A stretch of 64,000 nucleotides of DNA from Escherichia coli. GTDB taxonomy: Bacteria > Pseudomonadota > Gammaproteobacteria > Enterobacterales > Enterobacteriaceae. Both the position numbers and the translations under genes were made by a program. Within the stretch, counting starts at the first letter, position 1; each line of letters opens with the position of its first letter. Below are positions 13,831-21,460 of this stretch, one piece after another. The notes below the pieces were generated by a model. It ran no database searches. It was not told the DNA's origin and worked only from the letters and a program-made list of their open reading frames with translations. The DNA lies in assembly GCF_003018115.1 (NCBI RefSeq), contig NZ_CP027457.1; one strand, 5' to 3'.

Positions 13831-14061
13831 TTAGATGATAAATGACAGCAGGAATGTGCCCGCCAGAGCGACGACTGAAGCGATAAATGTCGCTGTCGTA
13901 TAGTATTTAAATGTTTCATTGAGCGTAGCGCCGCAATATTGCTTCACCAGCCAGAAAAGCGAGTCCATAACGATCGTGCAGCCAATCGCGCCTGAACCGA
14001 TAGCAATCGCAATAATTTCCGGGCTGATGTCGGGATACAGCGGCAGCACAATGATCCATAT
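13831..14061 (-). pseudogene. dsdX: 3-prime remnant of D-serine permease gene dsdX (about 75 C-terminal codons only)
   Basis: Hydrophobic GntP-like C-terminal segment directly upstream of dsdA; frame closed by TAA at 14062-14064; no upstream dsdX sequence and no dsdC. Confidence 0.75.
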
Positions 14062-14291
14062 TTATATTTTCTTCTCCAGGTTGGCGATGCCAGTTGGCAT
14101 GTTTTACTTACTTGCCTATATGGTTACTCGTTGGCGAGAACAGAGGCGGAATTTGGGACAATTGTCCGGCAATTATTGTTATTTTTTATTGTATTGCCGT
14201 GTCGGGTGATAGGGCGTTGAGAATTTCGTTGGATCTCGCCAGTGACGTCTGTTTCTGCTACAGTGCCCGTTTTACGGCAAACGGCTTGGGT

Positions 14292-15287
14292 ATGGCTTCA
14301 TTAAAGGATGTCGCACGCCTGGCGGGAGTGTCGATGATGACAGTCTCCCGGGTGATGCATAATGCAGAATCTGTGCGTCCTGCAACGCGTGACCGCGTAT
14401 TGCAGGCAATCCAGACCCTGAATTATGTTCCTGATCTTTCCGCCCGTAAGATGCGCGCTCAAGGACGTAAGCCGTCGACTCTCGCCGTGCTGGCGCAGGA
14501 CACGGCTACCACTCCTTTCTCTGTTGATATTCTGCTTGCCATTGAGCAAACCGCCAGCGAGTTCGGCTGGAATAGTTTTTTAATCAATATTTTTTCTGAA
14601 GATGACGCTGCCCGCGCGGCACGTCAGCTGCTTGCCCACCGTCCGGATGGCATTATCTATACTACAATGGGGCTGCGACATATCACGCTGCCTGAGTCTC
14701 TGTATGGTGAAAATATTGTATTGGCGAACTGTGTGGCGGATGACCCAGCGTTACCCAGTTATATCCCTGATGATTACACTGCACAATATGAATCAACACA
14801 GCATTTGCTCGCGGCGGGCTATCGTCAACCGTTATGCTTCTGGCTACCGGAAAGTGCGTTGGCAACAGGGTATCGTCGGCAGGGATTTGAGCAGGCCTGG
14901 CGTGATGCTGGACGAGATCTGGCTGAGGTGAAACAATTTCACATGGCAACAGGTGATGATCACTACACCGATCTCGCAAGTTTACTCAATGCCCACTTCA
15001 AATCGGGCAAACCAGATTTTGATGTTCTGATATGTGGTAACGATCGCGCAGCCTTTGTGGCTTATCAGGTTCTCCTGGCGAAGGGGGTACGTATCCCGCA
15101 GGATGTCGCCGTAATGGGCTTTGATAATCTGGTTGGCGTCGGGCATCTGTTTTTACCGCCGCTGACCACAATTCAGCTTCCACATGACATTATCGGGCGG
15201 GAAGCTGCATTGCATATTATTGAAGGTCGTGAAGGGGGAAGTGTGACGCGGATCCCTTGCCCGCTGTTGATCCGTTGTTCCACCTGA
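14292..15287 (+). CDS. cscR: LacI-family sucrose operon repressor CscR
   Basis: ORF-track frame 14094..15287; start placed at MASLKDVARLAGVSMMTVSRV (LacI-type HTH), C-terminal periplasmic-binding-like sugar domain; adjacent to cscA/K/B. Confidence 0.85.
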   Translation: MASLKDVARLAGVSMMTVSRVMHNAESVRPATRDRVLQAIQTLNYVPDLSARKMRAQGRKPSTLAVLAQDTATTPFSVDILLAIEQTASEFGWNSFLINIFSEDDAARAARQLLAHRPDGIIYTTMGLRHITLPESLYGENIVLANCVADDPALPSYIPDDYTAQYESTQHLLAAGYRQPLCFWLPESALATGYRRQGFEQAWRDAGRDLAEVKQFHMATGDDHYTDLASLLNAHFKSGKPDFDVLICGNDRAAFVAYQVLLAKGVRIPQDVAVMGFDNLVGVGHLFLPPLTTIQLPHDIIGREAALHIIEGREGGSVTRIPCPLLIRCST

Positions 15288-15294
15288 TATTATG

Positions 15295-16728
15295 CTAACC
15301 CAGTTGCCAGAGTGCCCCATGTTGCACCACAGCCACTCCGTGGGAGGCATAAAGCGACAGTTCCCGTTCTTCTGGCTGCGGATAGATTCGACTACTCATC
15401 ACCGCTTCCCCGTCGTTAATAAATACTTCCACGGATGATGTATCGATAAATATCCTTAGGGCGAGCGTGTCACGCTGCGGGAGGGGAATACTACGGTAGC
15501 CGTCTAAATTCTCGTGTGGGTAATACCGCCACAAAACAAGTCGCTCAGATTGGTTATCAATATACAGCCGCATTCCAGTGCCGAGCTGTAATCCGTAATG
15601 TTCGGCATCACTGTTCTTCAGCGCCCACTGCAACTGAATCTCAACTGCTTGCGCGTTTTCCTGCAAAACATATTTATTGCTGATTGTGCGGGGAGAGATA
15701 GATTGATGCTGCTGGCGTAACGACTCAGCTTCGTGTACCGGGCGTTGTAGGAGTTTGCCATTGCTCTCTGATAGCTCGCGCGCCAGCGTCATGCAGCCTG
15801 CCCAGCCTTCACGTTTTGAGGGCATTGGCGATTCCCACATATCCATCCAGCCGATAACAATACGCCGACCATCCTTCGCTACAAAGCTTTGTGGTGCATA
15901 AAAGTCATGCCCGTTATCAAGTTCAGTAAAATGCCCGGATTGTGCAAAAAGTCGTCCTGGCGACCACATTCCGGGTATTACGCCACTTTGAAAGCGATTT
16001 CGGTAACTGTATCCCTCGGCATTCATTCCCTGCGGGGAAAACATCAGATAATGCTGATCGCCAAGGCTGAAAAAGTCCGGACATTCCCACATATAGCTTT
16101 CACCCGCATCAGCGTGGGCCAGTACGCGATCGAAAGTCCATTCACGTAATGAACTGCCGCGATAAAGCAGGATCTGCCCCGTGTTGCCTTGGTCTTTCGC
16201 CCCGACTACCATCCACCATGAGTCGGCTTCACGCCACACTTTAGGATCGCGGAAGTGCATGATTCCTTCTGGTGGAGTGAGGATCACACCCTGTTTCTCG
16301 AAATGAATACCATCCCGACTGGTAGCCAGACATTGTACTTCGCGAATTGCATCGTCATTACCTGCACCATCGAGCCAGACGTGTCCGGTGTAGATAAGTG
16401 AGAGGACACCATTGTCATCGACAGCACTACCTGAAAAACACCCATCTTTGTCATTATCGTCTCCTGGCGCTAGCGCAATAGGCTCATGCTGCCAGTGGAT
16501 CATATCGTCGCTGGTGGCATGTCCCCAGTGCATTGGCCCCCAGTGTTCGCTCATTGGGTGATGCTGATAAAACGCGTGATAACGATCGTTAAACCAGATC
16601 AGGCCGTTTGGATCGTTCATCCACCCGGCAGGAGGCGCGAGGTGAAAATGGGGATAGAAAGTGTTACCCCGGTGCTCATGAAGTTTTGCTAGTGCGTTTT
16701 GCGCCGCATGCAATCGAGATTGCGTCAT
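15295..16728 (-). CDS. cscA: Sucrose-6-phosphate hydrolase / invertase CscA (GH32)
   Basis: GH32 motif WMNDPNG, RDP and EC motifs; ORF-track frame 15295..16737 with start likely at MTQSRLH. Confidence 0.9.
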   Translation of the reverse strand: MTQSRLHAAQNALAKLHEHRGNTFYPHFHLAPPAGWMNDPNGLIWFNDRYHAFYQHHPMSEHWGPMHWGHATSDDMIHWQHEPIALAPGDDNDKDGCFSGSAVDDNGVLSLIYTGHVWLDGAGNDDAIREVQCLATSRDGIHFEKQGVILTPPEGIMHFRDPKVWREADSWWMVVGAKDQGNTGQILLYRGSSLREWTFDRVLAHADAGESYMWECPDFFSLGDQHYLMFSPQGMNAEGYSYRNRFQSGVIPGMWSPGRLFAQSGHFTELDNGHDFYAPQSFVAKDGRRIVIGWMDMWESPMPSKREGWAGCMTLARELSESNGKLLQRPVHEAESLRQQHQSISPRTISNKYVLQENAQAVEIQLQWALKNSDAEHYGLQLGTGMRLYIDNQSERLVLWRYYPHENLDGYRSIPLPQRDTLALRIFIDTSSVEVFINDGEAVMSSRIYPQPEERELSLYASHGVAVVQHGALWQLG

Positions 16729-16762
16729 TTTAATCATCCTGGTTAAGCAAATTTGGTGAATT

Positions 16763-20466: not shown

Positions 20467-20522
20467 AATCAGCGCTCATTGATATAATTCTTTTATTTTA
20501 ACGCTTTAGGTGAATATATCAA

Positions 20523-20948
20523 TTGAGTAATCATGATGATTTACTGGCGGGATTTCTCCGCAAACGACACAGTGTCAGTAAGCTGGTTGTGCACCTTATT
20601 TTTACGACAAAGTATCGACGCAAACTATTCGACAGTCAGATGATCGCTCAGTTGCGTGAGGCTTTTGGCTCCGCTGCGGCAAAGCTTGAATGCGAAATTA
20701 TTGAGATGGACGGGGAGCCAGACCATGTACACCTGCTGGTTGCCTACCCGCCAAAACTGGCGGTCAGTGTGATGGTCAATAATTTAAAATCGGTATCATC
20801 ACGTTTGCTACGCCAGCAGAACGCGCATTTACGTATGCAGAGTAAAACGGGGCTTTTGTGGTCGAGATCGTACTTTGTCTGTAGCACCGGAGGGGCAACG
20901 ATTGAAACGCTCAGAGCCTACGTTCAGAGTCAGTCAACACCTGATTGA
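20523..20948 (+). CDS. tnpA: IS200-type Y1 (HUH) transposase TnpA
   Basis: HUH motif HVHLL and catalytic Tyr region SYFVCSTGGA; annotated frame begins at TTG so true start uncertain; hairpin terminator at 20954-20973. Confidence 0.85.
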   Translation: MSNHDDLLAGFLRKRHSVSKLVVHLIFTTKYRRKLFDSQMIAQLREAFGSAAAKLECEIIEMDGEPDHVHLLVAYPPKLAVSVMVNNLKSVSSRLLRQQNAHLRMQSKTGLLWSRSYFVCSTGGATIETLRAYVQSQSTPD

Positions 20949-21018
20949 TCTTTAAAGCCCTGCGGGCTTTTCGCCTTATATCCCCGCCCGCATTGGGCGA
21001 GGGTTTACGGCGTTTTTC

Positions 21019-21300
21019 GCTAAAGGAATTGTTGTTAGACGAAGCCTTTTTCGCCTTTACCGGATCGATGCCAACCGAGATGTCTTTCCTCGCAGTCCAT
21101 GCCTTATCCCTTGCCTCCTGCAAAGTCATTAGCGGATATTTTCCTACGGTCAGGATTTTCTCCTTACCGTCAATCTTGTAGCGAAGCTGCCATACCTTTT
21201 TCCCTGACACAGGGACATAAAGGTACAGGCCATTACCATCGAGAAGGCGGTATGGTTTTTCTTTCGGCTTTGCTGCTTCAATCTGCTTAACGGTGAGCAT
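21019..21300 (-). pseudogene. intS: 5-prime fragment of P4-type (IntS-like) integrase truncated by the IS element
   Basis: ORF-track frame 20911..21336; N-terminal Arm-DNA-binding region MLTVKQIEAAKPKEKPYRLLDGNGLYLY..., homology lost after about codon 106 where IS sequence begins; lies beside argW. Confidence 0.8.
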
Positions 21301-21460
21301 GGGTAAAAATCCGGTGGGTAAAATTATTTTATCCACTTTTTACCCGTCATGGTGTGCGGCTGTCAACGATCTGACGCGAACCATGTCGAACTGTGAATCT
21401 ACGGAAGGCTTGATATTCAAGGGATTTTGCGGACTGGTACGGATGGGAGCGAACTGATAA

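Follow-up and report, generated by a model that had tools for sequence, protein, structure and literature searches.

The csc sucrose allele at the argW-dsdCXA locus of an Escherichia coli genome, with an ISEc46 copy and an intS stub on its argW side

Results

Gene content between dsdA and argW

The stretch of DNA analysed here (64,000 nucleotides of an Escherichia coli genome, referred to as the window) carries cscR-cscA-cscK-cscB, an IS200/IS605 element and a truncated integrase gene between dsdA and the tRNA-Arg gene argW. This gene content, read originally from the letters alone, was borne out by the open reading frames, by profile matches and by the RefSeq annotation of an identical record. 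The D-serine ammonia-lyase gene dsdA (12485..13813, minus strand; TIGR02035, 814 bits) is intact and encodes 442 aa, with 3 aa differences from K-12 DsdA; R415H is unique among the loci compared. Next to it lies a 3' remnant of dsdX on the same strand (13831..14048) that retains the last 72 of 445 codons (NF007395 profile positions 374-445). DsdX homology ends abruptly, as had been noted, at a breakpoint that blastn against K-12 placed at 14048|14049 rather than near 14060.

The left flank of the csc island (14049..14291, plus strand), upstream of cscR, has no K-12 homology. It was aligned with four other csc loci (L002, L008, L009 and L010) and with that of the O157:H7 genome TR01, revealing a 12-bp indel polymorphism at ~14215-14226, where the 12 bp are present in the window, L010 and TR01 and absent in L002, L008 and L009. 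cscR (14292..15287, plus strand), the LacI-family repressor gene of the csc regulon, was assigned from LacI-family matches, the RefSeq start and product, and the gene name in L010; its full-length 331-aa product differs from those of L002, L008 and L009 at 1-2 aa and from that of L010 at 9. The gene of the cytoplasmic GH32 sucrose hydrolase (invertase), cscA (15295..16728, minus strand; 477 aa; TIGR01322, 480 bits, cut-off 356) encodes the GH32 motifs WMNDPNG, FRDP and WECPD. Between it and cscK is a divergent control region (16763..16839), identified from the sequence and its inverted repeats, with two perfect 12-bp palindromes, GTTAACGTTAAC, at 16763-16774 and 16828-16839. Since these are LacI-type palindromes with a central CG, the two sites are probable CscR operators. 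cscK (16944..17858, plus strand; NF006957, 505.7 bits, cut-off 450) encodes a full-length PfkB-type fructokinase of 304 aa, and cscB (17930..19177, plus strand; TIGR00882, 595 bits, above the cut-off) a 415-aa sucrose:H+ symporter of the oligosaccharide MFS family. CscB is ~30% identical to LacY and has the counterparts of the LacY charge residues (D129, R147, E270, R300, H320 and E323). The four genes, which in L010 too are named cscR, cscA, cscK and cscB, have cscA divergent from cscKB; they stand where dsdC and the 5' part of dsdX would be, with dsdA retained. The promoter scan found fewer promoter-like sites than in shuffled sequence and was uninformative for csc; no tandem repeats were reported in 12000-26000.

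Of the csc right flank, only the first 79 bp remain (19178..19256, plus strand; blastn and sequence comparison with L002, L008, L009 and L010). In the other csc loci ~377 bp more follow, with what is left of a DUF4942 gene and a 16-21-bp repeat of the 3' end of argW; this stretch is deleted here. What follows instead is an ISEc46 element (19257..21019, minus strand), then a 5' fragment of intS (21020..21300, minus strand; nt 1-281, aa 1-93 of 385, comprising just the Arm DNA-binding part; tblastn, RefSeq pseudogene), and argW itself (21462..21536, minus strand), which encodes tRNA-Arg(CCT) and is an integration hotspot (ARAGORN; Rfam tRNA, 63.4 bits).

Comparison with K-12 and with genomes of the same arrangement

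At the same position, MG1655 has argW, intS, the prophage CPS-53 (10.2 kb), dsdC, full dsdX and dsdA. Alignment with K-12 showed that 14049-21019 in the window (6,971 bp) stands in for 12,141 bp of K-12, a stretch that runs from the 3' part of intS through CPS-53 and dsdC into dsdX, of which it takes the first 1,120 nt. The predicted replacement of these K-12 genes by csc genes, an IS200/IS605 element and a truncated integrase was therefore seen directly in the alignment. The accessory segment had been drawn up to argW; the segment stood but its limit did not, as K-12 homology picks up again at 21020, within intS, and 21020-21461 (the integrase fragment and the spacer to argW) is common to both. 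Nor is this quite the one clearly accessory segment of the window, as had been stated: the yfc fimbrial operon (31752-38928) is likewise strongly diverged from K-12.

Over 12400-21700, three complete genomes were 100% identical to the window, two more showed a few base differences or a 1-bp gap, and the other two were at 99.5%. All seven of these genomes, mostly O169:H41 ETEC, have the same arrangement, including its argW side, and it is therefore not an assembly artefact.

Distribution of the csc and dsdCX alleles

The distribution of the two forms of the locus was determined in 5,426 complete E. coli genomes. The dsdX/csc junction at 14048|14049, followed by means of an 80-nt stretch that spans it, was present in 2,663/5,426 genomes, and dsdX was intact at the same point in 2,764/5,426. 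Similarly, cscAKB was found in 2,645/5,426 genomes and dsdC with the 5' part of dsdX in 2,698/5,426. csc and dsdCX are an almost perfectly exclusive two-allele polymorphism. The replacement of dsdCX by csc is already known from EC3132, E. coli W and O157:H7, and rarity here is limited to the argW side. Literature likewise upholds the original remark that a similar arrangement occurs in some E. coli lineages, although 'some' was too low, as ~49% of the complete genomes have the allele.

When read directly, the dsdX/csc junction was identical in the window, L002, L008, L009 and L010, and it is apparently monomorphic except in one genome, TR01. We considered the TR01 junction as a second type; there, 40 nt of extra dsdX replaces 40 nt of csc flank, in the sole such genome of the collection. 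It was not counted as a second acquisition because a patch of equal length suggests an error of assembly or polishing.

The argW side of the window is unlike that of other csc loci, as might be expected if this lineage had gained csc in a separate insertion event instead of inheriting the common allele. We consider such an event most improbable: the 5 loci read directly share one dsdX/csc junction, whose 80-nt stretch recurs in 2,663 genomes, the csc DNA is 96-99% identical throughout, and the argW-side difference is fully accounted for by an IS-bounded deletion. We are highly confident that the argW-dsdCXA variable locus here carries the common csc allele, its argW side reshaped by an ISEc46-bounded deletion.

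Predicted sucrose and D-serine phenotypes

The csc ORFs had been taken to be free of inactivating lesions, and this held: 4/4 match other csc loci in length and differ from them at few aa, and the CscA motifs and CscB charge residues are kept. Decay of csc does occur in other lineages, through frameshifts in L009, an IS4 insertion and a cscA frameshift in L010, and a cscB internal stop in TR01. The strain is predicted to be sucrose-positive. It might still be sucrose-negative or weakly positive despite having csc, either through CscR repression at low sucrose or through CscA or CscB substitutions. EC3132 reportedly shows slow growth at low sucrose that is relieved by mutation of cscR or cscB; besides the csc decay in L009, L010 and TR01, substitutions unique among the loci compared are found in the window (CscA T170S and P180Q, CscB S168N and L272V). 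We nonetheless think a sucrose-negative strain unlikely, as none of the four csc ORFs is shortened, the catalytic and charge-relay residues that were checked are all there, and the changes are mostly conservative.

DsdC was not found in the window, nor was dsdC found on the seven chromosomes with the same arrangement, and dsdC had no plasmid matches in the genome collection. The expectation that no second dsdC lies elsewhere was borne out to that extent. dsdA is left in place without its activator gene, and induced deamination of D-serine would be lost, judging from published work on the same allele. D-serine is accordingly predicted by the analysis to be both unusable and toxic in a strain with this allele. 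The combined sucrose-positive, D-serine-negative phenotype is predicted because published work on the same allele shows both. E. coli W grows on sucrose and is unable to use D-serine; EHEC is D-serine-sensitive, with dsdA silent without DsdC, and wild-type EHEC uses sucrose for growth. The literature also describes csc in place of dsdC and part of dsdX at the argW hotspot, together with failure to use D-serine.

ISEc46 and its target sites

The element, which RefSeq names ISEc46, is a 1,763-bp member of the IS200/IS605 family (NF033573, 141 bits, cut-off 55; NF040570, 341 bits, cut-off 100) with divergent tnpB (19297-20466, minus strand) and tnpA (20523-20948, plus strand). Its limits, RE at 19257 and LE at 21019, were set from the ends of 4 other independent copies. 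TnpA is a Y1 HUH transposase, as in other IS200/IS605 elements, with the motif HVHLLV, and TnpB is 1-2 residues off other ISEc46 copies. Subterminal hairpins at ~19266-19285 and 20982-21003 (CCCTCGCCC/GGGCGGGG and CCTCGCCC/GGGCGGGG) were found in all copies; their z-scores are modest (-2.4 and -1.3), which makes them weak by fold alone. The element has neither terminal inverted repeats nor a target duplication. In K-12, the empty sites in oppD and in the moaE-ybhL spacer hold a single CTAA/TTAG, and occupied sites likewise hold one; ISEc46 therefore inserts 3' of 5'-TTAG without duplication. The promoter scan placed two divergent promoter-like sites between tnpA and tnpB. In an Rfam scan of 12000-25500 (E <= 0.1), argW was the only hit, with no curated match for a TnpB-associated RNA.

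With its Y1 (HUH) TnpA, RNA-guided TnpB, hairpins and fixed tetranucleotide target, ISEc46 is like other IS605-type elements with divergent tnpA and tnpB, and as an element it is ordinary. The flanks of this copy, in contrast, come from two different target sites. In other loci the uninterrupted csc flank reads GCCCTG|CTAA, a proper ISEc46 target, and at the other junction K-12 intS reads CTAAAGGAATTG; the 5'-TTAG-3' tetranucleotide beside LE (21020..21023, minus strand) is part of intS, the K-12 intS match beginning at 21020. We conclude that this copy marks a deletion.

Origin of the argW-side deletion

The intS fragment is a remnant of a CPS-53/KpLE1-like prophage: tblastn matched IntS residues 1-81 at 100%, and over 93 aa the translation does not differ from K-12. 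A mobile argW island has an intact tyrosine integrase beside the tRNA gene, and at its far border the 3' end of the tRNA gene recurs as a direct repeat. Here, IntS is reduced to aa 1-93 and the att repeat of L008 and L010 is deleted, and what is left at argW is a dead remnant rather than a mobile island. Other csc loci retain a prophage between argW and the att repeat.

We reconstruct the history of the locus as follows. In one ancestral recombination, the non-PTS sucrose regulon took the place of dsdC and of dsdX up to its nt 1,120. The ancestor of this lineage also had an intS-bearing prophage at argW, as L008 and L010 do today. The RE of ISEc46 now abuts the TTAG site of the csc flank and its LE abuts the TTAG at intS nt 278-281; nothing of what lay between the two sites is left, neither the DUF4942 remnant and the att repeat nor the body of the prophage and the last 877 nt of intS. 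In the most likely route that we infer, two ISEc46 copies in the same orientation, one at each TTAG, underwent homologous recombination that left one hybrid copy.

Intermediates were sought in the genome collection with two synthetic 90-nt junctions, one joining the 3' side of intS to RE and the other joining LE to the uninterrupted csc flank. A simple ISEc46 insertion at either TTAG site was found in 0/5,426 genomes, and none of the seven chromosomes with the arrangement has a second ISEc46. With these intermediates absent, the sequences do not tell the two-copy route from one in which a single insertion preceded a deletion from TTAG to TTAG. In the latter case, ISEc46 would have inserted at one TTAG, most likely that of the csc flank, and an adjacent deletion ending at the other TTAG would have followed by 4-bp microhomology or aberrant TnpA strand transfer, a second copy never having been present. 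The end product would be identical to that of the two-copy route, with only one TTAG left at the LE junction; two flanking copies are as absent from the 5,426 genomes as a simple insertion is, and these strains have one chromosomal ISEc46. However, a chance deletion endpoint exactly on the 4-nt target is improbable (roughly 1 in 256 per position), and we know of no established TnpA-catalysed adjacent deletion of this kind in the IS200/IS605 family. We regard the single insertion as possible but somewhat doubtful. Whether the argW prophage was removed by ISEc46 itself, by recombination of two TTAG-targeted copies or by TnpA joining two TTAG sites, seems to us evenly balanced.

Relation to known loci and significance

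The csc regulon of EC3132, E. coli W and O157:H7 EDL933 at argW-dsdA (Bockmann, 1992; Jahreis, 2002; Moritz and Welch, 2006; Archer, 2011; Connolly, 2015) has the same 4 genes in the same order and orientation; there too they lie between argW and a truncated dsdX, with the same dsdX junction. In nucleotide sequence, the locus described here is 98-99% identical to that of O157:H7 and to other csc loci. It differs from them only on the argW side, 3' of cscB, where the DUF4942 remnant and att repeat have given way to ISEc46 and the 281-nt intS stub. Compared with CPS-53 (KpLE1) of K-12, IntS aa 1-93 is identical and the argW-intS spacer is 97.8% identical, but the 281 nt of intS are all that is kept; the prophage body, torI and attR (a pawZ-like repeat) are absent.

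The csc/dsdCX dimorphism is an established niche marker. dsdCXA is typical of uropathogenic strains, and csc of many intestinal or diarrhoeagenic strains; to the latter D-serine is toxic, and it represses their virulence genes. The ETEC-like window is a plain carrier of the csc allele, of small importance beyond correct annotation. It indicates that the argW side of the csc island is open to remodelling by an IS200/IS605 element, whose 5'-TTAG target is documented from empty sites. If ISEc46 did make the deletion, the locus would be a clean natural case in which an IS200/IS605 element removed a prophage and fixed the csc island where it lies. The guide of the resident TnpB would then, as a by-product, be expected from the published TnpB/omega-RNA mechanism to match the uninterrupted csc flank of other strains (TTAG followed by CAGGGCTAAGC...).

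The csc allele in place of dsdC and most of dsdX

By ORF, tRNA and family searches, the emrY-yfdC interval of the window contains dsdA (12485-13813, -), a 72-codon dsdX 3' remnant (13831-14048, -), cscR (14292-15287, +), cscA (15295-16728, -), cscK (16944-17858, +), cscB (17930-19177, +), tnpB (19297-20466, -), tnpA (20523-20948, +), an intS 5' fragment (21020-21300, -) and tRNA-Arg(CCT) argW (21462-21536, -). Three complete genomes (two O169:H41 strains and one further E. coli record) are 100% identical over 12400-21700, and F9792 and F8111-1SC3 differ by only a few bases or a 1-bp gap; the RefSeq records matching this segment annotate the same features and name the transposase ISEc46. 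The K-12 MG1655 order is argW, intS, the cryptic prophage CPS-53 (10.2 kb), dsdC, full-length dsdX and dsdA, as the original prediction had stated. In blastn against K-12, homology ended at 14048 and started again at 21020, inside intS; the window therefore has 6,971 bp in place of 12,141 bp of K-12 (2466826-2478966). The gene layout and breakpoints confirm the original observation that csc genes and an IS element occupy the K-12 dsdC-dsdX/argW prophage position. DsdX homology does end abruptly, at 14048|14049 rather than near 14060 as predicted (12 nt away); past this point K-12 dsdX reads TGGGTGCAAC and the window CAATGATCCA. IntS residues 1-93 are identical to K-12. A dsdC or full dsdX placed elsewhere was looked for; no sequence in the 64-kb window encodes DsdC or DsdX residues 1-373.

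The dsdX/csc junction sequence was identical in four other csc loci (L002, L008, L009 from strain 2013C-3492 and L010 from RMDEC465). Among 5,426 complete E. coli genomes, an 80-nt query across the window-type junction gave a match in 2,663 (full-length or nearly so in 2,521), and uninterrupted dsdX sequence at the junction point was found in 2,764, the two counts adding up to 5,427 vs 5,426 genomes. At a coverage of at least 80%, cscA-cscK-cscB was present in 2,645 genomes and dsdC plus the dsdX 5' part in 2,698. Csc and intact dsdX are the two, almost perfectly exclusive alleles of one polymorphism, and the common junction points to a single origin of the csc allele. At the argW recombination hotspot, csc takes the place of dsdC and part of dsdX in EDL933 and most dsd-negative strains (PMC4366372), and E. 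coli W, with csc between argW and dsdX, cannot use D-serine (PMC3032704). Together with PMC7486766 and the genome counts, these reports confirm the occurrence of similar arrangements in other lineages; the csc feature is already known and common.

The sole genome of the 5,426 with a different dsdX/csc junction was O157:H7 TR01 (NZ_CP033605.1; L013 5995-6258), where exactly 40 nt of csc flank are replaced by 40 nt more of dsdX. A patch of equal length points to an artefact of assembly or polishing. TR01 cscB has an internal stop.

ISEc46 and loss of the argW prophage

The other csc loci share ~456 bp past the cscB stop, made up of a DUF4942 gene remnant and then 16-21 bp repeating the 3' end of argW. 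This flank leads directly into argW in L002, and an intS-bearing prophage separates argW from the repeat in L008 and L010. The window keeps only the first 79 bp of the flank, to 19256.

The common sequence of ISEc46 was defined from four other copies (L004-L007), and two K-12 empty sites (oppD and the moaE-ybhL spacer) showed that its terminal CTAA (TTAG on the element's top strand) is target DNA and that insertion makes no duplication. On these grounds the window copy is 19257-21019 (1,763 bp). Each end has a subterminal hairpin, tnpB is directed towards the right end (RE) and tnpA is divergent from tnpB. In uninterrupted csc loci the position corresponding to 19256 is followed by CTAA, a proper ISEc46 target, and the CTAA at the opposite, left end (LE) is part of intS. 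RE thus borders the csc flank as after an insertion there, LE borders intS as after an insertion into that gene, and all DNA between the two targets is deleted. Recombination between two same-orientation ISEc46 copies would give exactly the product in the window; one insertion followed by TTAG-to-TTAG deletion would give the same product, and no intermediates of an IS-bounded deletion were found in the 5,426 genomes. Seven genomes carried the arrangement: two O169:H41 strains, three records that match them exactly or almost exactly over 12400-21700, one isolate from a guinea fowl and one from a frog. The IS-bounded prophage loss at argW is a minor variant specific to this lineage, and its parts are well understood.

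A 141-aa ORF (20911-21336, -), marked as a pseudogene by RefSeq, has its start 12 codons ahead of that of intS, spans IntS residues 1-93 (the Arm DNA-binding part) and continues into ~36 residues read from the ISEc46 left end, which would give a chimeric peptide. Following the published TnpB/omega-RNA mechanism, the guide of this copy would be the DNA just outside RE, CAGGGCTAAGCATTTTAC... (19237-19256, -). TTAG plus CAGGGCTAAGCATTTTAC... matches the uninterrupted csc flank in other E. coli exactly. Rfam matched no family in the putative guide region.

Gene integrity and predicted phenotype

All four csc ORFs have the lengths found in other loci, with 1-11 amino acid differences, and a check for inactivating lesions found none. 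CscA retains the WMNDPNG, FRDP and WECPD motifs; CscB, ~30% identical to LacY, keeps the counterparts of LacY's sugar-binding and proton-relay residues (D129, R147, E270, R300, H320 and E323). Two perfect GTTAACGTTAAC palindromes between cscA and cscK (16763-16774 and 16828-16839) are candidate CscR operators by their likeness to LacI-type sites. DsdA is intact. A query made of window 19000-21700 fused to K-12 dsdC hit each of the seven chromosomes sharing the arrangement at one place, so none of them has dsdC or a second ISEc46; dsdC had no plasmid matches in the genome collection. Wild-type EHEC grows on sucrose, and its remaining dsdA is silent without DsdC, reactivation being possible by deletions placing the cscA promoter beside dsdA (PMC7486766). 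The predicted phenotype, sucrose-positive with D-serine toxic and not usable, is well supported by analogy.

A 12-bp indel, CGTTGAGAATTT (14215-14226), distinguishes the window, L010 and TR01, which carry it, from L002, L008 and L009, which lack it. Lying ~66 bp ahead of the cscR start, the indel could influence the promoter of that gene. Some lineages show csc decay: strain 2013C-3492 (L009 5033-7266) has frameshifts in cscK and cscB, and RMDEC465 (L010 3344-6369) has a frameshifted cscA and an IS4 between cscA and cscK.

Other variable segments

The csc segment is accessory, as originally proposed. A second variable segment, unlisted in that prediction, is the region of the yfc fimbrial operon (K-12 yfcV to yfcO; 31752-38928). 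It is strongly diverged: part is 83.6% identical to K-12 and ~2.5 kb (36416-38928) gave no megablast match, against 96-99% identity in the remainder of the window. The yfdF homologue (23774-25042, -; ~32% G+C) encodes 422 aa vs 352 aa in K-12, with 70 aa inserted in frame, apparently through a diverged internal duplication; nt 239-381 of the K-12 locus have two matches, and Tandem Repeats Finder did not report the duplication. At 57090-57157, ~56-68 bp have two K-12 matches around 2430913-2431014, close to the cvpA-dedD spacer, which suggests a small local duplication or extra repeat unit.
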